A stretch of DNA of 64,000 nt from Alphaproteobacteria bacterium (GTDB lineage Bacteria; Pseudomonadota; Alphaproteobacteria; UBA7887): positions 1,824,001-1,888,000 of the forward strand of contig CBDCGL010000011.1 in NCBI GenBank assembly GCA_965216755.1, read 5' to 3'. The notes beneath the pieces are model-generated. The model worked only from the letters and a program-made list of their open reading frames with translations. It had not been told where the DNA came from and made no database searches. The translations under genes and the position numbers were made by a program. Position 1 is the first letter of the stretch. Every line of letters begins with the position of its first letter. Below are positions 2,800-21,296 of this stretch, in pieces.

Positions 2800-4575
2800 T
2801 CAGCGGGGCGATTGGACGGTTCGAGACCGGGCCAATGGTTCGGTCGCCACATGATCACGGTAAGCACCCGTCGCCCGGTCGTCGACGACACTAACCCCTT
2901 CCGATAAAACGACTCCATACAAGCGCTTGGCATCCTCGGCGTTGTAGTATCCGCGCGCGACGTCCCGCGCCACCGCGTCCGGATCGCGGGTCATTGGATC
3001 GCCAAAACCACCGCCCCCAGGGGTTTCCACGGTGACCCAGTCGCCCTTATTTAGTACAAGATCTTGATCCTTAGAATAGTGCGGCGGGCGGTACCGTGCA
3101 CCATTTTGGCACACTGTCACCACATTGCGACCTCCCATATCGCCGCCGGCGGCGCCGTTTGGACCGAATCGACCGTGATCCATCACCATTGAAGCGCGTG
3201 CCGTACCACGCAATAAGCGCACGGTATAGCGAACACCAAAACCGCCCCGTTGCCGGCCGGCGCCCCCCGACCCCTCATGCAATGCATATTCGTCGAACAC
3301 AACGGGATAGCGTTGCTCCATCACTTCTATCGGCGTTGTCTTTGAGATACCAATGGTTGAGCAGCCATTGCTCAAGCCATCGCTCTGACACGTACCGCCA
3401 TAGCCGCCGCCGGAAATGACATACATGACATACGCGCGTTCGCGCGTTGGATCCACGCCACCCAGGGCAAAATTGCCCGACGTTCCGGCTGGCGCGGCGA
3501 ACAGCCGATCGGGTATGGCCTTTGCCATGGCATCGAACACGGCTTCTGCGATCCGCTGGCTGACCTCGGCCGCGCATCCCGAGACCGGGCGCGGGTAACG
3601 CGCGTAAAGGAACGTGTCATCCGGATCGATGATCCGCAACGGTTCAAATGTCCCGGCGTTGATCGGCACGTCCGGAAAAATGTGCTTGATCGCCAGATAA
3701 ATCGACGACCGCGTCGTGGCGATGACGCTGTTCATGGGACCCAAGCAGGGTGGACTTGACCCCGACATGTCGAATTCCAGTTGGCGGTCACGCTTGGTGA
3801 TAGCCATGGCGATTCTCAGCGGCTCGTTGACGACACCGTCGGAATCGACAAACGCCTGGCCGTGATAGACGCCGTCTGGAATGGTCTCGATTTCGGCTTC
3901 CATTTGCCGGCGCGCGCGGCGACGCAATTCGGCGATGCATTCCTCGACCAGGTCAACGCCATAGCGATCGAGCAACGCGGTCAAACGGCGTTCGCCCACC
4001 GACAACGCGGCCGCTTGCGCCTTGATATCTCCAATTCGTTGGTCCGCAATGCGGATATTCGACAAAATAATCGAAAGGATCTCTTGGTCAATTTCGCCGG
4101 CCTTATACAATTTGACCGGTGGCAACCGCAGCCCCTCCTGTTCAACTTCGGTGGCATTCGCCGAAAACCCGCCCGGTACCGCGCCGCCCGTATCCGGCCA
4201 ATGGCCAGTATTTGATAGCCAGGCAAATAATTTGCCTTGATAGAAATACGGCCGGGTGAATTTTACGTCCATCAGATGCGTGCCGCCCAAATAAGGATCG
4301 TTCAAAACGAACACATCCCCGGGTTGCACGTCGTCGGCGCGTTCGATCACAGCCCGCGTCGAATATTGCATGGTGCCGACGAATACCGGTAAGCCCAGGT
4401 CGCCTTGAGCAATCAAAGCGCCGTCATCGCGATGATAGATGCCGTCGGATCGGTCGAGCGCCTCCGAAATCACCGGACTAAAGGCCGCGCGCACGAACGC
4501 CAGATCCATCTCATTGCACACCTGTTGCAGGCCATTTTGGATTACGGCCAAGGTCACTTGATCGATTGCCGTCAC
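2800..4575 (-). CDS. Hydantoinase B/oxoprolinase family protein
   Basis: FSPVISE, NDPYLGGTHLMD, GHWPDTGG, QEGLRLPP, ETPGGGGFGDP motifs; overlaps A subunit stop. Confidence 0.93.
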   Translation of the reverse strand: MTAIDQVTLAVIQNGLQQVCNEMDLAFVRAAFSPVISEALDRSDGIYHRDDGALIAQGDLGLPVFVGTMQYSTRAVIERADDVQPGDVFVLNDPYLGGTHLMDVKFTRPYFYQGKLFAWLSNTGHWPDTGGAVPGGFSANATEVEQEGLRLPPVKLYKAGEIDQEILSIILSNIRIADQRIGDIKAQAAALSVGERRLTALLDRYGVDLVEECIAELRRRARRQMEAEIETIPDGVYHGQAFVDSDGVVNEPLRIAMAITKRDRQLEFDMSGSSPPCLGPMNSVIATTRSSIYLAIKHIFPDVPINAGTFEPLRIIDPDDTFLYARYPRPVSGCAAEVSQRIAEAVFDAMAKAIPDRLFAAPAGTSGNFALGGVDPTRERAYVMYVISGGGYGGTCQSDGLSNGCSTIGISKTTPIEVMEQRYPVVFDEYALHEGSGGAGRQRGGFGVRYTVRLLRGTARASMVMDHGRFGPNGAAGGDMGGRNVVTVCQNGARYRPPHYSKDQDLVLNKGDWVTVETPGGGGFGDPMTRDPDAVARDVARGYYNAEDAKRLYGVVLSEGVSVVDDRATGAYRDHVATEPLARSRTVQSPR

Positions 4576-6611
4576 CGCGCCACCTCAATCACCAGATTTC
4601 CCAGTCCATCGACGTGAGCGCGGTCGCCCGGTTCGATGACCGTCGTCCCATCTAACTGCTCGACAATGGCCGGCCCATCAAACGGTTCGTCCCGTGACAA
4701 TTGGTCACGCTGGTAGACCGGGGTCTCGCGCCAACCATTTGTGAACCACACGGGCCGTGTTGTCGGTCCGTCGCACGTGCGCGATCTATCAACGTGCGCT
4801 GGTGCCAACGCCTGCAGCGACACAACCGGGCGGCGGCCAATCACGACGCTATGTAAATTCACCAATACGGCGCGGATTTCCGCCAGTTCAACCGCAAAAC
4901 GATCCCAATAGGCGGCCGCGAATGCGCGTTGTAGCGCCGCGACGTCACCGCAATCTTCGGGCATGGGCACGGTCAACATGTGCGTTTGCCCTTCAAACTG
5001 CATGTCAGCGAAATGCTTAACAACGATTTCCCGTACCGCAACACCTTCACGCGCGATCACGTCGCGGCCTTCGGCTTCTTGTCTGGCCAAGATGTCGGTC
5101 ACCACTTCACCATCGAGGTCCGCCAAAAGTGTGTTGAGCGTGGTGACGTAGTCGTGACGCAAATCTGCGGTGATGCAGCCTATGGCGTTGGTGACACCCG
5201 GCCGAGCCGGAATCATGACCCGCGGGATGCCAAGTTCCCGCGCCAACGCGCTGGCATGCATCGGCCCGGCGCCGCCGAAAGCGAACATGGTGAAATCTCT
5301 TGGATCGTGACCACGTGCCAGTGACACAAGACGCACCGCCCCTGCCATGCGATCATTAGCAATCGAAAGAATTGCGGCCGCGGCATCCGGCGCGGTTAGC
5401 CCCAGCGACGCGCCAATATATGCCACCAGCGCGTCTTCGACCGCTGCCCGCGAGACGGGCGCATCGACCCCCAACAAGCCGTCCGGGCGCAGGCGGCCGA
5501 GCACAAGATTGGCGTCGGTCAAAGTCGGCCGTGTGCCGCCGCGGCCGTAGCAAATGGGCCCCGGATCGGCGCCGGCACTTTCCGGACCGACCTGAACCAT
5601 GCCGGCTTTGTTGATCGCGGCGATGGAGCCACCGCCGGCACCAATCGTGTGTACGTCAACCATGGGGACATGGATCGGCATGCCATAGGTCAACTCGGTT
5701 TCCGACGTCACTGCGGGGACGCCGTCTAACACCAAACCGACGTCCGAACTGGTGCCCCCCATGTCATAGGTGATCACGCGATCCAGCGCGCAGGCCCGCG
5801 CCACCGCCGCTGCCGCCATCACACCGGATGCGGGCCCGGACATGACTGTGTTGACGGCGCGCTCGGCCACGATCTTGGCGGCGACGCTGCCGCCGTTTCC
5901 CTGCATGACGATCAGGTCACGTTCAAACCCGCCGCGTTTGAGTTCGTCGCTCAATCGGACAATGTAGTGATGCAAGACCGGCTGTACGGCTGCGTTCACG
6001 GCCGCGGTCGTGCCCCGCTCATACTCGCGGAACTCTGACAGAATACGGTGTCCCGCCGTGATGTAATCATTTGGCCAGACATCACGTGCGATCGCGAGTG
6101 CTCGGTTTTCGTGGACTGGGTTTCGATAGCTGTGCAAAAAGTGAATAACCAACGATTCGCAACCAATATCTATGAGCTGCGCGAGCATTTGACGCAGTTC
6201 GCTTTCATCAAGGGGAACCATCACGGTACCGTCGGCGGCCATGCGCTCGGTCACTTCCAAGCGGCGCTCGCGTGGGACCAAGGGCTCAAAGCTACCGGTC
6301 ATGCCATAGGGCCTGGGGCGCGTGCGACGGCCCAATTCCAACACATCACGGAAGCCCTTGGTTGTGATCAGCCCGCAGGCACTGATCTTGCCTTCCAGAA
6401 GGGCGTTGGTGGTTGTTGTCGTGCCATGACTAATGGCCGAGATCTGACCCAGCGATATATCGCTGTCGGCCAGGGCAGCCATGACCCCGATGGCTTGGTT
6501 GCCAACGGTCGTCGGTACTTTGGCAATGCGCACTTGGCCGGTTTCCGGATCAAGCACCATGAGGTCGGTAAACGTGCCACCGACATCAACGCCGATTACG
6601 GCCCCGGTCAC
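4572..6611 (-). CDS. Hydantoinase A/oxoprolinase family protein (ATP-binding subunit)
   Basis: GVDVGGTFTD, HGTTTTTNALLE, SGPASG, DMGGTSSD, GAGGGSIA, FGGAGPMH motifs. Confidence 0.93.
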   Translation of the reverse strand: MTGAVIGVDVGGTFTDLMVLDPETGQVRIAKVPTTVGNQAIGVMAALADSDISLGQISAISHGTTTTTNALLEGKISACGLITTKGFRDVLELGRRTRPRPYGMTGSFEPLVPRERRLEVTERMAADGTVMVPLDESELRQMLAQLIDIGCESLVIHFLHSYRNPVHENRALAIARDVWPNDYITAGHRILSEFREYERGTTAAVNAAVQPVLHHYIVRLSDELKRGGFERDLIVMQGNGGSVAAKIVAERAVNTVMSGPASGVMAAAAVARACALDRVITYDMGGTSSDVGLVLDGVPAVTSETELTYGMPIHVPMVDVHTIGAGGGSIAAINKAGMVQVGPESAGADPGPICYGRGGTRPTLTDANLVLGRLRPDGLLGVDAPVSRAAVEDALVAYIGASLGLTAPDAAAAILSIANDRMAGAVRLVSLARGHDPRDFTMFAFGGAGPMHASALARELGIPRVMIPARPGVTNAIGCITADLRHDYVTTLNTLLADLDGEVVTDILARQEAEGRDVIAREGVAVREIVVKHFADMQFEGQTHMLTVPMPEDCGDVAALQRAFAAAYWDRFAVELAEIRAVLVNLHSVVIGRRPVVSLQALAPAHVDRSRTCDGPTTRPVWFTNGWRETPVYQRDQLSRDEPFDGPAIVEQLDGTTVIEPGDRAHVDGLGNLVIEVAR

Positions 6612-7477
6612 GATACTGCCACGATTTGACGCCTGTACCCGGCGATGGCCGCGCTCGCAACGCGTCGCTGACCCTGCAACGCCATATATGCGCCGACGAT
6701 CAGGCCACCTGCGATCATGCGCTGCGCGACCTGTTGACCGGCGCGGAGTGCCTTGCTGACAAAGTCACGCGGCAGGGGCCCCACCACCCTGGTCACCAAC
6801 CGCGCACCCAGGTCGCTGTCGGCATCGATCGAATTTGCGGGGGCACGCTGGATCGATGGATGGACGCCATCGATGGCGTTCGCGATCAAGGTCGCGGCGA
6901 CATCAGCCGCCGCGGCGCTATCCGCCAGCGCGGTGACCGCGTCGGCGATACCCATCGATAGCGATCGGCCGCGCCAGCCGGACGTGGCGAGCCCCCTCAC
7001 CGACATTGTGCTGTCTAGGAAGACCCGAGCGTCCAGCGCCGGCGCGCCGATATCGTCCATAACACCGGCCGTCAAACTTTCGCCTGCTGCAAGATAAAAT
7101 GCGATGTCACCGCCATTGTTGACGTAAGCGCGTACCAATCCGCCCTCAGCCCGCAAATGCGCCAGAATATCATCGGCGACAGCACCCGCCACCGCCGCCA
7201 TGGGTGTGACGAATTGACGCCGATGCGGCCATGTCGCCGCCACCATCCGTCCCGCGATGGACCCGCGCATCTTTGGTCGAGATGGGGGAATCGGTTGCCG
7301 CAGCACCGGCAAGTCGCCGACCAATTCGTCAAGAACGTACTCAAATCGCGCAACGGCACGGCGATAAGCGTGTCGCACGGCCTGCGGATTGCCCCACGCA
7401 CCGGCCACCAGGTCAATCGGGCCGTGCTGCAAACGCAGCCGCCCGGTTTCGGCCATCAGCCAAGATCGGGCGGACAT
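6608..7477 (-). CDS. UPF0280 family protein (ApbE superfamily)
   Basis: LQHGPIDL, TPMAAVAGAVAD, YVNNGGDIA, ATSGWRGRSLSMGIADAVT; ATG 7477 overlaps the hnr stop (TGATG). Confidence 0.88.
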   Translation of the reverse strand: MSARSWLMAETGRLRLQHGPIDLVAGAWGNPQAVRHAYRRAVARFEYVLDELVGDLPVLRQPIPPSRPKMRGSIAGRMVAATWPHRRQFVTPMAAVAGAVADDILAHLRAEGGLVRAYVNNGGDIAFYLAAGESLTAGVMDDIGAPALDARVFLDSTMSVRGLATSGWRGRSLSMGIADAVTALADSAAAADVAATLIANAIDGVHPSIQRAPANSIDADSDLGARLVTRVVGPLPRDFVSKALRAGQQVAQRMIAGGLIVGAYMALQGQRRVASAAIAGYRRQIVAVS

Positions 7478-8934
7478 CACCGGGAACGCCGCCCGGTCGC
7501 CACATCCCAGGGCCACGGCACGTCATGGTCGAGATGTGCCCTGGTCACGTCGGTGCGGGCGACAACCGTGTCAACGTCGACAATATGATCGCCGTAGCCG
7601 CCCAGCGCGAGGTAGTCCGCGCGCCCCAACGTGAACTCGATCGGCGCGACCAATGCCGGCGTCGGCACGTAACCGAACGACTTGGCCGGCATTTTTGTGA
7701 CGTCCACCATCAAGGTGATACCGCCGCCCGGCCACACATAAGCAGGCGCGCCGCCACAAGTCACGCGCGTCAAAGCGCCCGCAACCGAACGGGTCAGCCG
7801 CACCGGGTTTTCAGTCACGCCGGCGCGCAACGAACCACCGGCACCGGCCATAAACAACACACTGCACAGCGCCGGCTCGCAGTTTTCGGCGATCCGCGCG
7901 ACAACCGTGGCGACCGGTTCGGGCATCTCCATTGGCCGCGGTTCCAAGTCCGCATTCAATTCAAACCAGGCAGAATCCTCGCCGGTGGTGGACACCATCA
8001 GCAAACGCAATCCTGGCCACGCTTTTTTCGGATCGATGCGTTCGATGATATCCAAGGGATTGTGGATGTCGGTACCGCCCCAACCAGCGCCATGGGCGGC
8101 GACTTGAAAATAGCGACCGGGTGTCGATCTGCGACCACGCACGCGTATGCCGGCGGGCCTCATATCGAGAAACCGGCCAGCTTGATGTTCCGTCAAGACG
8201 CCCGTGATGTGATCGTCGACGACAATGACTTCATCTGCGTGGCCGTGCCATTGTTTGGCGAACATGCCGATCGCGGCCGAACCACAACCGACCCGCATCC
8301 GATCCTCGCGCACACCGTCGACCACAGGTGCGGCGCCGGCTTGGACCGTGATGGCCGCACCACCATCGATATCCAAATCAACCGGCTGTCGGTCGCACAG
8401 GTCGAGCAGCGCACGACATGTCACCGCGCCCTCTTTCTTGGAGCCGCCGGTGAAATGGCGCACGCCGCCGAGCGCGAGCATTTGTGAGCCATACTCCGCC
8501 GTGGTCACATGGCCGATCTGCTCGCCATTACAGCGCACAGCCGCCGATTCAGGTCCCAAATAGCGATCGGTATCGATTTTTACCTTGACGCCGCAATAGC
8601 TGAAAATGCCCTCAGACACGACAGTGACCATGTCAATATCGTCGATCTGACTGGCAACGATAAAGGGTGCGGGTTTGTAATCGGGGTAGGTCGTGCCGGC
8701 GCCAACACCGGTTACAAACTGGTCGCCGCCGCGCACCACGGCGCCCTGCCAAGCGGAGGTGTCTTCAACGAACGGTACGAGCGTCTCCGCGCGCGTGGCG
8801 ACCAGCAGCGGATCGACTCGGGTCAATACCCCGTCGAAGTTAGCATAGCGGTCACATGCGCCGGACTGGCCATCGCGAATGCGGCACAGGACCGGACAGG
8901 CCTCACACCGGATCAAAGATTTGTCGTCGGCCAT
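7477..8934 (-). CDS. hnr: 6-hydroxynicotinate reductase
   Basis: N-terminal CEACPVLC..GACDRY Fe-S motif, TTYPDYKPAPFI, EGIFSYCGVKVKIDTDR, RMRVGCGSA, GAGGSLRAGVTENP, VWPGGGIT. Confidence 0.88.
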   Translation of the reverse strand: MADDKSLIRCEACPVLCRIRDGQSGACDRYANFDGVLTRVDPLLVATRAETLVPFVEDTSAWQGAVVRGGDQFVTGVGAGTTYPDYKPAPFIVASQIDDIDMVTVVSEGIFSYCGVKVKIDTDRYLGPESAAVRCNGEQIGHVTTAEYGSQMLALGGVRHFTGGSKKEGAVTCRALLDLCDRQPVDLDIDGGAAITVQAGAAPVVDGVREDRMRVGCGSAAIGMFAKQWHGHADEVIVVDDHITGVLTEHQAGRFLDMRPAGIRVRGRRSTPGRYFQVAAHGAGWGGTDIHNPLDIIERIDPKKAWPGLRLLMVSTTGEDSAWFELNADLEPRPMEMPEPVATVVARIAENCEPALCSVLFMAGAGGSLRAGVTENPVRLTRSVAGALTRVTCGGAPAYVWPGGGITLMVDVTKMPAKSFGYVPTPALVAPIEFTLGRADYLALGGYGDHIVDVDTVVARTDVTRAHLDHDVPWPWDVATGRRSR

Positions 8935-8937
8935 GGC

Positions 8938-11667
8938 TTATCGTTCCCGCCCCAGGATGGCGGCCCGCAGGCGATGGGGCAAGACCGGAACGCAAGTCAT
9001 ACGCACGCCGGTGGCATGGCGGATCGCGCCCAGTATGGCCGGTGCGGTCGGCGCCAATCCCGGTTCGCCGACACCTTTCGCGCCAAACGGACCGGCCGGT
9101 TCCGGATCTTCGATCAAATAGATATCGATCGACGGCACGTCACCGAAAGTCGGTACCAAGTAATCGTGAAGGTTTGCGGTCCGGCCAGGCTCGTACGATT
9201 CCATGAGCGCCATGCCAAGCCCCTGCGCGATACCACCCTCAATCTGCCCCTCGACCAGGGTCGGATTTATCGCGCGACCAACATCATGAGCGGCCCACAT
9301 GTGCCGCACTTTGGTCAAGCCTAGCGCCAGGTCGACATCGACCATGGCAATTTGCGCGCCGAACGCATATGTCGCATAGGGATCACCTTGGCCATCGGCA
9401 TCCATCAATGTGGTCGGCGGATCGAAAACGCCGTCGGCATACATAACCAATCCATCGGCGTCGGCATCCAGCGCCGCGAGATCAAGCCTGTGGGATTGGC
9501 GTCCGTCACTGATCGTCAGAGCGCCGTCGCCCGCATGGATCGTCGCGCCGTCGCCGGCATTCACACAGCGCAAAATCTGCCGCCGCAGTGCCGCGCCGGC
9601 TTCTGCGGCAGCCCGGCCACTGACAAAAGTTTGTCGTGATGCCGAAGTCTTGCCCGCATCCGCCGTGTGGTCGGTATCCCCTACCACTTGCCGAATTGCG
9701 TCGAGCGGTACGCCGATCGCATCTGCGGCGATTTGCGCCAACACCGTGGTGGAGCCCTGGCCGATATCCACCGCGCCATTGGCCAGCCGGATCGCACCGT
9801 CGCGGGTCACGCCAAGGCGGATGGTGGAGGGATTCGCCATCGCCGTGTTGCCGATGCCATACCACATGCATCCGATACCAACCCCGCGTCGCCACCGCAT
9901 GGCTGTGTCGTTGTAACGCCGCGCATCTCGACATGCGTCACGCCAAGCTGGCGCCAACGCGTCGAGGCAGGCCTGGAGCCCGACGCTGGTAGGGAGCGTT
10001 TGGCCGGTGGCGGAGCGGTCGCCCGCCCGTAGCGCATTGCGGCGGCGAAAGGCGAACCGATCGATGCCAAGCGCCAGGGCCAAATCGTCCATCATGGCCT
10101 CGTGCGCAATGGCCGCTTGCGGGACACCGAACCCGCGAAACGCGCCACTCGGCGGCATATTGGTGTAGACGGCGCGGCCACGGTGCGAAACGTTGGGCAC
10201 GCGATACGGCCCGCTGGCGTGAATGGGCACGCGGCCCGCCACAGTCGGCCCCCACGATGCGTAGGCACCTGTATCAAAGGTCGCATCGACCGTCGCGGAC
10301 ACCAATACGCCCTCGCGATCACAAGAAAATCGCGCCGCAATCCGGGCCGGATGGCGCTTGGTTGTTGCGGCCATACTCTCAGCGCGGTCATAGACGCAGG
10401 CGACCGGTCGGTCTGAGTCCAAAGCGGCGCGCGCGATCAAGGCGTGAACAGACAAATCCAGCTTGCCACCAAATCCACCGCCACAGGCAGTGGGTATGAT
10501 ACGCACATTTTGTGGGCTCATATTTAAGATGTGGGCGACTTCGTCCCGATCCATATATGGTGTTTGTGTACTGACATGGATTTCGACCCGGTCGCCCTGG
10601 CGCACCGCCCATCCAGCTTCGGGCTCGATATAGGCGTGCTCGACACGACTGGTTTCGAAAGTGCCTTCGGCGACAAGTGCGTCAGCATTGTCGACCATGT
10701 CGCCCGATTTCACGCGACCGGAAATCAGTATATTGCCTGTGCAATCTTCGTGAACCAAGGGCGCGCCGGGCGCCAATGCTGCATCGAGGTTGGATACCGC
10801 GTCGATAGGCACATAAGAGATCGGCAAGCTTTGATCAGGTAGATCGGCGATGGCGTCTTGCGTACCGACCAAGGCCAAGACGGCTTCGCCCAGATAGCGA
10901 ACCAACCCGTCGGCCAACACGGGCTGGTCCCTCAGTTCTGGATAGATCCCGAACCGGTTGATGGGGATATGATTCGCGGTCAGGATTTGGCTGAGTCCCG
11001 GCGTCGTCGTCACGATGCCCCGCATATCCCCGAGGGTCACCCGCGCCGCAGCATGCGGCGATCTGACAACGCGCAGCCACAAGGCGTCGCGCGGCACATT
11101 GTCGGCACCAAAAACGTCGCTGCCGTTGACCTTAGCGGGACCATCAAGCCGCGTGACGCGGGCACCCACGGCCACGTCCGCCGGTGGCTCGACCCCTACT
11201 CTCGCCCCAGCGTCAGAAACCGCGGCGATGATCTTTCGATATCCCGTACAGCGACATAAGACACCGCCGAGGGCTATTTCAATCTGTGCAGCAGTCGGAT
11301 GCGGATGTCGCGCCAGCAGAGCCGTGGCCGCCATCAACATTCCCGGTGTGCATATGCCACATTGCGCGGCACCGTGACGCAAAAACGCCTTCTGCAAGGG
11401 GTTCAAAATGCCATCTTGCGCCAACCCTTCGACGGTGCGGACGGTACAGCCGGCCACTTGTCCTAGTGCCACTAGACATGCACAACGCGCCGCATCCTCC
11501 ACCAATACCGTACAGGCGCCACAGTCGCCGGCATCGCAGCCGACTTTGGTTCCGTAAAGACCGAATTCGTCGCGTAAGACGTTCGACAAGCGCGCCATCG
11601 GCGCGCTGTGCGCCTTGACGTCACGCCCGTTGAGACGAAAGTCGATGCCATGGGACCGTGCCATCAT
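8938..11667 (-). CDS. Xanthine-dehydrogenase-family fused (2Fe-2S)+molybdopterin subunit, probable nicotinate dehydrogenase
   Basis: GCDAGDCGACTV and QCGICTPG..CRCTGY Fe-S motifs fused to Mo domain (GGGFGGK, AFRGFG, GQIEGG, GAKGVGE); adjacent to hnr. Confidence 0.88.
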   Translation of the reverse strand: MMARSHGIDFRLNGRDVKAHSAPMARLSNVLRDEFGLYGTKVGCDAGDCGACTVLVEDAARCACLVALGQVAGCTVRTVEGLAQDGILNPLQKAFLRHGAAQCGICTPGMLMAATALLARHPHPTAAQIEIALGGVLCRCTGYRKIIAAVSDAGARVGVEPPADVAVGARVTRLDGPAKVNGSDVFGADNVPRDALWLRVVRSPHAAARVTLGDMRGIVTTTPGLSQILTANHIPINRFGIYPELRDQPVLADGLVRYLGEAVLALVGTQDAIADLPDQSLPISYVPIDAVSNLDAALAPGAPLVHEDCTGNILISGRVKSGDMVDNADALVAEGTFETSRVEHAYIEPEAGWAVRQGDRVEIHVSTQTPYMDRDEVAHILNMSPQNVRIIPTACGGGFGGKLDLSVHALIARAALDSDRPVACVYDRAESMAATTKRHPARIAARFSCDREGVLVSATVDATFDTGAYASWGPTVAGRVPIHASGPYRVPNVSHRGRAVYTNMPPSGAFRGFGVPQAAIAHEAMMDDLALALGIDRFAFRRRNALRAGDRSATGQTLPTSVGLQACLDALAPAWRDACRDARRYNDTAMRWRRGVGIGCMWYGIGNTAMANPSTIRLGVTRDGAIRLANGAVDIGQGSTTVLAQIAADAIGVPLDAIRQVVGDTDHTADAGKTSASRQTFVSGRAAAEAGAALRRQILRCVNAGDGATIHAGDGALTISDGRQSHRLDLAALDADADGLVMYADGVFDPPTTLMDADGQGDPYATYAFGAQIAMVDVDLALGLTKVRHMWAAHDVGRAINPTLVEGQIEGGIAQGLGMALMESYEPGRTANLHDYLVPTFGDVPSIDIYLIEDPEPAGPFGAKGVGEPGLAPTAPAILGAIRHATGVRMTCVPVLPHRLRAAILGRER

Positions 11668-12518
11668 CCGCCGACGGCCGGTTGCCCACCCAACTTCGCA
11701 AGCGAATCAGCTACCATTCGTCGCGCCGCATCACAACGATAGGCGGCCGTGGCCCGAATGTCGTCAATCGGCGATAACGCGGCGAAATGGCTATCTTCGA
11801 CGATGTTGCCAAGTTCCGGCGCCAATGGCAGGCCCAACAATTGGGATTCCAATTGTTGCAGCCGGCGCACCGCGGGGCCGCAAGCACCAACTGCGACACG
11901 CGCGGCGGTCACGACGCCATCGTCGGCTTCAATCACAGTCGCCACGGCAATGATCGAAATGACCAAATTCTTGCGTGCCCCAAGCTTGCGAAAATCGCTC
12001 ACGGCCACGGACGCACGCGGTGTTGGTACCAGTACGGCCGTCATCAGTTGGTCCGGCCGCAAAACCGTTTGCCCCTTGCCTTGGATAAATGCTGATAACG
12101 GAATCTGAGTCACATCCGCGACCGATGTCAATTCTACGTGGGCATCCATCACCGACAGGGGTGGCACACCATCAGCTGCCGGCGATGCATTGCACAGATT
12201 GCCACACAACGTGCCGGCGTTCTGGATCTGTGGTCCGCCAATTTCGCGCGCCGCCGCACGCAAGCCGTCAAAGACCGGCGGCAAATCTGCCGCGTCGATG
12301 TCCGCCCATGTGGTTGTGGCGCCGATACGCCAGTGATCGGCTATGTACGCAATACCGCGCAGGCTGTCGATGCCCGTGATATCAAGAACCGCATCGGCAA
12401 GCGGCTGCGCCGCGCGCGCCGGAAAGAAATCCGTGCCGCCCGCCAAAACTGTCAGGTGTCGCGCGGCAAGCGCGGCTACGGCCTCATCAATGCTCTGCGG
12501 TCGCACATAATCCGCCAT
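11664..12518 (-). CDS. Xanthine-dehydrogenase-family FAD-binding subunit (NdhF-like)
   Basis: LAGGTD, GGPQIQNAGTLCGNLCNASPAAD, PIDDIRATAAYR; first gene of the coupled operon. Confidence 0.9.
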   Translation of the reverse strand: MADYVRPQSIDEAVAALAARHLTVLAGGTDFFPARAAQPLADAVLDITGIDSLRGIAYIADHWRIGATTTWADIDAADLPPVFDGLRAAAREIGGPQIQNAGTLCGNLCNASPAADGVPPLSVMDAHVELTSVADVTQIPLSAFIQGKGQTVLRPDQLMTAVLVPTPRASVAVSDFRKLGARKNLVISIIAVATVIEADDGVVTAARVAVGACGPAVRRLQQLESQLLGLPLAPELGNIVEDSHFAALSPIDDIRATAAYRCDAARRMVADSLAKLGGQPAVGG

Positions 12519-20102: not shown

Positions 20103-21296
20103 ATGTCACAAGCTGCCGGCAGCCAAGCCCTTTCGCGATTTCACGTACTTGATCTCACGCGCGTGCGCGCCGGGCCCACGGCCGTGCGGCAATTGGCAGA
20201 TTGGGGCGCCAACGTCATCAAGATTGAACAACCGCCGAAACCCGGCGAAGGCGACGGCATGGGCGGCCCACGCCATGGCCCGGATTTTCAAAACCTGCAC
20301 CGGAACAAGCGCGGCATCACGCTGAACCTAAAGGATTTGCGCGGCCTGGACGTATTCAAGCGCTTGGTCAAAAACGCCGACGTGGTCGTCGAGAACTACC
20401 GCCCGGCCGTCAAGGACCGGCTGGGCGTCGACTACGAATCGCTGCGCGCCATCAATCCACACCTGGTCTACGCGAGCATCTCTGGATTTGGCCAAGACGG
20501 ACCGTATCGAGACCGGCCGGGTTTCGATCAGATTGCGCAGGGTATGGGCGGGCTGATGTCGATTACCGGCTTGCCCGGGCAGGGTCCCGTTCGCGCCGGG
20601 GTGCCGATTGCCGACCTGTCGGCAGGTTTGTATGCCGCGATCGGTATTCTGGTCGCACTGCTCGAACGCGAGGTCTCAGGTAAAGGCCAGTGGGTGCAGT
20701 CCTCGCTTTTGCAGGCCCAGATCGCCATGCTCGACTTTCAAGCGGCGCGTTGGTTAATGAAAGCCGAAGTCCCGGGCCAGGCCGGCAACAATCACCCGAC
20801 AAGTATCCCGACCGGCGTTTTTGCGACCAAGGACGGACATATCAATATCGCCGCCTCGGGCAATGAGATCTTTGGCCGATTGTGCCGCACCATTGGCCGT
20901 CCCGAGCTGATCGAACATGCGGATTACGTCGACGATGCCGGTCGCTCCGAGAATCGCGACGCACTGAATGCCGCGCTTGAAGAGACGACCCGCACACGCA
21001 CGACTGAGGACTGGGTCACCACGCTCAACGCCGCCGGCGTCCCGTGCGGGCCGATCAATGCAATCGACCAGGTCTTCGCCGATCCCCAGGTCAAGCATCT
21101 CAACATGGCGCCCGCCGTCGACCATCCCGTTCTAGGCAATATTCAGCTGGTTGGCCAAGCTGCAATGCTCAGCCGAACACCGTCGCAACTGCGTGCGCCG
21201 ACGCCTGAGCGCGGCCAACACACCGACCAAGTCTTGGCAGAGTTAGGGCTGGAAGCCGATCAAATCGCCACTTTGCGCGCCGACGGCATCATCTAG
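20103..21296 (+). CDS. CaiB/BaiF family III CoA-transferase
   Basis: VLDLTRVRAGP, GANVIKIE, NKRGITLNLK, ENYRP, ISGFGQDGP, DLSAG. Confidence 0.93.
   Translation: MSQAAGSQALSRFHVLDLTRVRAGPTAVRQLADWGANVIKIEQPPKPGEGDGMGGPRHGPDFQNLHRNKRGITLNLKDLRGLDVFKRLVKNADVVVENYRPAVKDRLGVDYESLRAINPHLVYASISGFGQDGPYRDRPGFDQIAQGMGGLMSITGLPGQGPVRAGVPIADLSAGLYAAIGILVALLEREVSGKGQWVQSSLLQAQIAMLDFQAARWLMKAEVPGQAGNNHPTSIPTGVFATKDGHINIAASGNEIFGRLCRTIGRPELIEHADYVDDAGRSENRDALNAALEETTRTRTTEDWVTTLNAAGVPCGPINAIDQVFADPQVKHLNMAPAVDHPVLGNIQLVGQAAMLSRTPSQLRAPTPERGQHTDQVLAELGLEADQIATLRADGII

Follow-up and report, generated by a model that had tools for sequence, protein, structure and literature searches.

Background

The locus described here raises the question of how a lactam ring is opened when the enzyme expected to open it is missing. 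The window, a stretch of 64,000 nucleotides from an alphaproteobacterial genome (GenBank assembly GCA_965216755.1, contig CBDCGL010000011.1, positions 1,824,001 to 1,888,000), carries an operon of the kind that degrades nicotinate reductively by way of the δ-lactam 1,4,5,6-tetrahydro-6-oxonicotinate (THON). According to the part of PMC9304392 available, THON is hydrolyzed to (S)-2-formylglutarate by a bifunctional enamidase (Ena). The operon has no enamidase gene and has instead a pair of genes, hyuA and hyuB, for a two-subunit enzyme of the hydantoinase/oxoprolinase family. The initial annotation, made from the sequence alone, described six tightly coupled genes, and all of the open reading frames (ORFs), their strand and their junctions were confirmed: a flavin adenine dinucleotide (FAD) subunit, a fused iron-sulfur/molybdenum (FeS/Mo) subunit, 6-hydroxynicotinate reductase (hnr), UPF0280, hyuA and hyuB, in that order on the minus strand.

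Judged from sequence comparisons, HyuAB probably opens THON in place of the enamidase. The FAD and FeS/Mo subunits would hydroxylate nicotinate to 6-hydroxynicotinate, as orthology to the Ena-type clusters suggests, and Hnr would reduce this compound to THON, a step indicated by the names of its homologs and by orthology. HyuA and HyuB, with THON as their putative substrate, would open the ring at the cost of ATP by a mechanism like that of the caprolactamase CapAB, in which HyuA would carry out the activation by ATP and HyuB the metal-assisted cleavage of the C-N bond. This would yield the enamine of 2-formylglutarate, which would lose ammonia and proceed to glutarate by the Azorhizobium route. 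The ring-opening step was assigned on the basis of 1) the intact motifs of HyuAB, 2) the genome-wide exclusion between HyuAB and enamidase and 3) an operator box that is common to the relatives.

Mutual exclusion of enamidase and HyuAB

The enamidases used as queries were taken from hnr neighborhoods, in which an enamidase cluster was present at 38 of 81 loci; one of them, checked against the Eubacterium barkeri enamidase (2VUN), scored 350 bits. It had been noted at the outset that the window lacks an Ena-like gene, and a check of the whole genome (G000, 99.82% complete) gave the same result, with a best hidden Markov model match of 37.5 bits and no matches at 1e-40. Because the enamidase is absent from the genome, the operon is a variant of the known THON-route cluster and not a plain member of it.

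A sample of 401 genomes of the same class was then searched with Hnr, enamidase and HyuB queries. The identities fell into separate bands (enamidase, 69-80% versus 37-42%; HyuB, 65-76% versus 58-62% and 40-48%) and matches in the upper band were taken as orthologs. On this definition hnr was present in 63 genomes, the Ena ortholog in 26 and the HyuB ortholog in 42. The hnr genomes were divided into 25 with Ena and 38 with HyuB, while none had both and none had neither. They span 35 families (Ena in 15, HyuB in 23, 3 mixed). The same queries were applied to 226 genomes from the order to which G411 belongs. This Burkholderiales metagenome-assembled genome (MAG) was chosen as the center of the sample with its type, hnr with HyuB, already known. 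A hand tally gave 20 hnr genomes, 9 with Ena (68-73%) and 11 with HyuB (73-77%), and again none with both or neither. The survey for mutual exclusion that the initial annotation had proposed was thus borne out in 63/63 and 20/20 hnr genomes; all 83 hold exactly one of the two orthologs, the HyuB form in 49. A HyuB ortholog was found in 4 of 338 hnr-negative genomes of the class sample and in 1 of 206 of the second. The absence of ena from the genome and the mutual exclusion support the variant pathway with ATP-driven opening of THON that the annotation had put forward as a possibility.

Counts made at the level of the locus are misleading, as neither gene lay within the flank at 33 of 81 loci (the locus ORFs were clustered with a composition filter against shadow ORFs). 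Among the 38 genomes with HyuB and hnr, 21 had the two genes within 16 kb of each other and 9 had them farther apart on one contig; in the remaining 8 they lay on different contigs. Ena was missing from a control genome (L025/G010) that should have contained it, which shows the effect of assembly gaps.

In a quick IQ-TREE phylogeny of 59 of the 63 Hnr sequences (G045, G268, G349 and G398, with broken or partial hnr, were omitted), the Ena/Hyu label changed 10 times, with at least 4 changes forced by strong branches, compared with a mean of 18 for shuffled labels. On this tree, the type of ring opener appears to cluster by kinship yet to have been swapped repeatedly. The HyuB orthologs formed one clade (support 99) apart from the eight paralogs of the genome in a FastTree phylogeny from which one partial match, G284, was omitted.

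HyuAB as a putative ATP-dependent lactamase

HyuA and HyuB have the features that define the family, that is, the A and B domains, both DxGGT sites, GxxPGP and an Asp-His-Asp-His tetrad. The structures matched by HyuA were 7HK5 (429 bits), CapA (6YRA_A, 384 bits) and carboxylases (139-298 bits). Its phosphate motifs are intact, DVGGTFTD with D9 equivalent to D11 of CapA and DMGGT with D283 equivalent to D295, and the adenosine motif is GADPGP. In HyuB, D41, H100, D103 and H125 align with D41, H99, D102 and H124 of CapB and are invariant in 43 ortholog rows. The available part of the CapAB paper describes and mutates metal ligands of this type, and the family opens caprolactam (PMC8453981) and, as stated in the accessible text of PMC11033972, δ-valerolactam with ATP.

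The positions of the CapB pocket were mapped by hand via pairwise alignment. At or beside them, the hydrophobic residues of CapB are replaced in HyuB by R42, D44, S339, N368, S406, T407, S411 and K412. These residues are invariant or nearly so in the 43 rows (K412 in 40 of 43) and variable in the eight paralogs of the genome. Such a polar pocket would fit a polar lactam that bears a carboxylate.

Two more specific identities were rejected. As caprolactamase CapAB proper, the subunits scored 495.7 and 348.6 bits against a cut-off of 1000 (NF050156/NF050157), and as acetophenone carboxylase they reached at most 300 bits against NCBIfam Apc cut-offs of 1250-1500, with PDB scores below those of the lactamases. 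With nine HyuA/B-family pairs and many Mo-hydroxylase subunits, the genome (G000:C11) is unusually well equipped for N-heterocycles.

Regulator and operator box

Among the loci fetched, those from 16 Ena and 15 Hyu genomes contained a MarR regulator and those from 9 and 12, respectively, a Liv-type binding protein. The one cluster MarR tested matched the structures of BpsR (6PCO/6PCP, 94 bits), which is described in the available part of PMC6837509 as a sensor of 6-hydroxynicotinate with Tyr15, His23, Arg26 and His32 as ligand residues.

A matrix for an 18-base palindrome was built solely from the FAD promoters of Ena-type loci. The box was present in front of the FAD gene at 17 of the 22 Ena-type loci used for training and, at a score of at least 12, at 25 of 33 Hyu-type loci. 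Of the 46 hyuA rows listed, one had no upstream DNA; the box scored 24-30 in 10 of the 45 scorable rows (7 families) and no more than 2.4 in the other 35, most of which lie inside operons. Seven of the ten box-bearing rows came from genomes in which hyuAB and hnr are widely separated or lie on different contigs. The unlinked hyuAB genes are therefore tied to the regulon, because the operator box lies upstream of a separately transcribed hyuA. As a control, 7 of 447 unrelated ORFs scored 18 or more, and six of these border the same intergenic region as a pathway gene.

An AA_synth paralog accompanies the enamidase

The clusters hold two AA_synth (PF06684) paralogs that are 45% alike. Paralog a was found in both Ena and Hyu types, while paralog b (67-82% to the query) was present in 26/26 Ena genomes and 1/42 HyuB genomes, a further two of which had a match at 59%. 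Since paralog b follows the enamidase, the swapped unit is Ena with AA_synth-b versus HyuA with HyuB. Our guess is that AA_synth-b removes the enamidase product and so pulls a hydrolysis that ATP would make unnecessary. Extended to the whole group, this would give two interchangeable modules for opening THON, Ena with an AA_synth partner that removes the product or ATP-driven HyuAB with no partner, a scheme that is tentative and, on balance, doubtful. The AA_synth protein would in that scheme be a candidate for, e.g., an enamine deaminase or a 2-formylglutarate decarboxylase that pulls an unfavorable hydrolysis. If there are two such modules, a first reaction would be at hand for an AA_synth protein, a family with solved structures (BB2672 and SPO0826; PMC2954203, in the portion available), as would a defined substrate for a widespread orphan hydantoinase clade, and the ATP form would be the commoner one among the sampled hnr genomes (49/83).

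Evidence against the assignment and alternative explanations

Several observations weigh against HyuAB as the THON-opening enzyme. The ortholog cut-offs were set from the gaps between the identity bands after the results had been viewed, kin are not independent, so that Fisher p-values calculated for the exclusion are overstated and carry no weight here, and many of the sampled genomes are MAGs. The finding that no hnr genome has both genes depends on the ortholog cut, because a second subfamily of enamidase-like proteins (37-42% identity to the query) occurs in genomes with HyuB and hnr (G056, G166 and G606; 3 of 83) and also in G007, one of nine Hyu loci checked. This subfamily is not dismissible by similarity, since it scores 344 bits against 2VUN, where the hnr-linked form scores 350. 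Five genomes without hnr hold it as well, and enamidase genomes have additional copies, a distribution that suggests another role. The genome of the window has neither subfamily. An AA_synth gene adjoins the second-subfamily gene in two genomes (L211:2828-4840 in G056; G291:C1:99989-101812).

Three genomes of one family (G143, G277 and G382; f134) have a HyuB ortholog without orthologs of hnr, UPF0280 or the Mo subunit, so the HyuB clade is not always tied to THON. Their cluster (L147, L135, L137) consists of MarR, a CoxL-like Mo subunit, hyuA, hyuB and then pyridoxal phosphate (PLP) decarboxylase-family and BKACE genes, and is possibly a different N-heterocycle route that reuses the HyuAB clade. 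The other two hnr-negative genomes with HyuB (G238, G637) retain UPF0280 or Mo-subunit fragments, located at contig ends or elsewhere; the absence of hnr is probably due to an assembly gap. Enamidase without hnr was found in G104 and G508, and the former, also without UPF0280, counts against the assignment.

The four ligand residues of BpsR are partly kept in the MarR proteins, Tyr and Arg in the correctly parsed rows (27/31) and His23 and His32 partially. No box was found upstream of the window operon, no MarR ortholog was found in its genome (best match 35% over 95 residues) and G000 has no close ortholog of the ATP-binding cassette (ABC) transporter binding protein or of the AA_synth proteins of the clusters. 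Since the window lacks both regulator and box, this evidence covers the clade and not the window operon directly.

The first alternative is that the three-step logic is the same but that here, or in part of the Hyu group, it serves a different pyridine or other N-heterocycle. The missing regulator, box and transporter and the f134 cluster just described are in its favor, as are two properties of the hydroxylase. The fused subunit matches the E. barkeri nicotinate dehydrogenase in two parts (3HRD_A, 255 bits, residues 167-569; 3HRD_B, 206 bits, residues 593-908), but whole-chain PDB scores fail to single this enzyme out, being higher for aldehyde oxidoreductases and xanthine dehydrogenases. Moreover, just past the GGGFGGK motif the Mo subunit has His-Ala for an almost invariant Gln-Pro (Q408H/P409A), Gln being present at 408 in 52 of 53 relatives.

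The comparison with the Ena-type loci argues against a different substrate. The Mo subunit matches 230 of the 238 columns that are invariant in Ena-type loci, and its 8 deviations lie within the range of 1-16 for other Hyu-type rows. The median identities to Ena-type (n=22) and HyuAB-type (n=31) loci are nearly the same for the FAD subunit (52/52%), FeS/Mo (59/59%), Hnr (67/69%) and UPF0280 (51/52%). The two Hnr types interleave on the tree, and no column in Hnr, and only one in the Mo subunit, separates Ena- from Hyu-type; MarR, box and binding protein are common to relatives of both types. Hnr, a single-copy gene in this genome, is 60-74% identical to the Hnr of Ena-type loci, and eight Cys are invariant across 59 homologs except for one row gapped at four of them. 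It has no Pfam or NCBIfam match; homologs at 73-76% identity carry the name 6-hydroxynicotinate reductase (NCBI/JGI/UniRef), and the label comes from these names and from relatives that sit with enamidase, in a comparison of sequences other than that of E. barkeri Hnr. A different pyridine substrate had been offered in the initial annotation as its own alternative; for the variant as a whole the Hnr and Mo columns and the common regulator, box and transporter speak against it, and what is left of it concerns this one genome. Taken together, we consider a different substrate unlikely.

Secondly, HyuAB could belong to the pathway and act on another intermediate, such as a further reduced lactam, or also carry out the AA_synth-b step, as it replaces two genes, Ena and AA_synth-b. 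In Hyu-type loci, however, no additional reductase or transaminase is conserved, the residues match those of the lactam-opening CapAB, and THON is the sole lactam of the known route in the available part of PMC9304392, which together make this explanation quite improbable. Lastly, HyuAB could be an unrelated passenger (e.g. an oxoprolinase or carboxylase), with an unrecognized hydrolase opening THON. This is a very remote prospect, suggested by the eight other HyuA/B paralogs and the commonness of such pairs and largely refuted by the exclusion counts, by the rarity of HyuB in hnr-negative genomes (two of the five having other cluster genes) and by the operator box at unlinked hyuA copies.

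Organization of the operon and neighboring genes

Table 1. Features of the operon and two ORFs outside it, numbered from the first nucleotide of the window
Feature	Position	Strand	Basis
FAD subunit, xanthine dehydrogenase-family Mo-hydroxylase (putative nicotinate dehydrogenase, NdhF-like), 284 aa	11664..12518	-	PF00941+PF03450
Fused [2Fe-2S]/molybdopterin subunit, 909 aa, spanning NdhS+L+M-like parts	8938..11667	-	Pfam
6-Hydroxynicotinate reductase (Hnr)-type Fe-S protein, 485 aa	7477..8934	-	Named homologs
UPF0280-type protein (PRK04334)	6608..7516	-	NF003322, 341 bits (cut-off 290)
HyuA/CapA-type ATP-binding subunit, 679 aa	4572..6611	-	PF05378+PF01968+PF19278
HyuB/CapB-type metal-binding subunit, 591 aa; marker of the hnr-linked clade	2800..4575	-	PF02538
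ORF, 376 aa	18143..19273	-	
CaiB-type coenzyme A (CoA)-transferase	20103..21296	+	Succinate-glutarate CoA-transferase, 309 bits (below the cut-off of 750)

The Pfam domains, all over cut-off, are FAD_binding_5 and CO_deh_flav_C in the FAD subunit, Fer2, Fer2_2, Ald_Xan_dh_C and MoCoBD_1/2 in the FeS/Mo subunit, Hydant_A_N, Hydantoinase_A and Hydant_A_C in HyuA and Hydantoinase_B in HyuB. The FAD/FeS-Mo, UPF0280/HyuA and HyuA/HyuB junctions are 4-base overlaps and the FeS-Mo/Hnr gap is 3 bases. The listed UPF0280 ORF overlaps hnr by 40 bases; Met14 at 7477, which would give a one-base overlap with the hnr stop, is probably the likelier start, judging from the translation. The PRK04334 protein, which we take to be the one named UPF0280, is a near-constant partner of hnr, with its cluster present at 79 of 81 hnr loci, the window counted.

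At 9 of 80 hnr loci the genes follow the order hnr, UPF0280, hyuA, hyuB, with or without AA_synth/ABC genes inserted into it, and because of this recurrence and the 21 of 38 genomes with HyuB close to hnr, the order is not a matter of chance. In one family (f164; L124, L126, L128) an ORF of approximately 110-120 residues without a Pfam match lies between hyuA and hyuB, and in G080 (L136/L160) and G346 (L138) hyuB is separate from hyuA. In G080, hyuA is the last gene of the hnr operon and hyuB lies about 1.4 Mb away.

The flanks of the operon are unrelated: ada/ogt genes lie on its upstream side and a gene with an OmpA domain on its downstream side. The 376-residue ORF, which had no NCBIfam match at 1e-8, has E-x-x-H pairs that presumably suggest a ferritin-like di-iron protein. 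A search for the downstream route gave 24 acyl-CoA dehydrogenase matches; the CaiB-type gene, which lies 7.6 kb away from the operon, is not assigned to the pathway.

Several other genes accompany the related loci. A Mo subunit resembling CoxL/glyceraldehyde dehydrogenase adjoins hyu genes or ena at L131, L132, L136, L138, L175, L186 and L191, and is a candidate for oxidation of the aldehyde product; that of L135 scored 601 of the 790 bits set for NF041018. Genes that, judging by their sequence features, resemble 2-oxoacid:ferredoxin oxidoreductase alpha/beta, together with a pyridine nucleotide-disulfide oxidoreductase, lie beside hnr or hyuAB at L131, L132, L143, L146, L150 and L186. They are likely to supply electrons to Hnr, and in G166 and G291 an operator box lies between them and hnr. 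In 9 genomes, 7 of the Ena and 2 of the Hyu type, a gene for a VanA-type Rieske oxygenase lies within the cluster or adjoins it (L112, L120, L175, L182, L183, L184, L186, L191 and L194); the enzyme is possibly a demethylase through which N- or O-methylated nicotinate enters the route.

Significance and comparison with known systems

The reductive nicotinate route has been described with enamidase as the ring opener, and most of the sampled hnr genomes (38/63 and 11/20) carry the HyuAB clade instead. Pathway reconstructions that require enamidase would miss this majority. The assignment gives a testable substrate to proteins now labeled 'N-methylhydantoinase' and suggests a role for the AA_synth paralog, and a putative ATP-dependent δ-lactamase with a polar pocket could be of use in mild lactam hydrolysis. 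The exchange of Ena for HyuAB is a displacement within a known pathway by a known enzyme family and not a new kind of system. No description of it was found among the matches listed in the literature searched, and it may be mentioned in Alhapel 2006, Kitts 1992 or supplements.

The proteobacterial cluster for the THON route was reportedly first described by Alhapel et al. in 2006. With it the window operon has in common the core of Mo-hydroxylase, Hnr and UPF0280, and the relatives of the window also have its MarR, ABC transporter and AA_synth genes. The window differs in lacking enamidase, AA_synth, regulator and transporter and in having the HyuA and HyuB pair. Examples of the cluster, which leads to glutarate, are Azorhizobium caulinodans AZC_2804-2790, Bradyrhizobium japonicum blr3818-3830 and strain SG-6C (PMC3511419, as far as its text is available).

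The nicotinate fermentation of E. barkeri (NdhFSLM, 3HRD; Hnr; bifunctional enamidase, 2VUN) follows the same logic of hydroxylation, reduction and lactam opening, and the Mo subunit of the window matches NdhL and NdhM. In the window, however, the FeS and Mo parts are fused in one chain and the ring opener comes from an unrelated, ATP-dependent family. CapAB of Pseudomonas jessenii (6YRA), OplAB of Pseudomonas putida and the N-methylhydantoinase 7HK5 have the same two-subunit layout, DxGGT motifs, GxxPGP and metal site. HyuAB differs from CapAB in falling far below the caprolactamase cut-offs, in having invariant polar and basic residues in place of the hydrophobic CapB pocket and in its link with hnr in place of one with an omega-amino-acid transaminase route.

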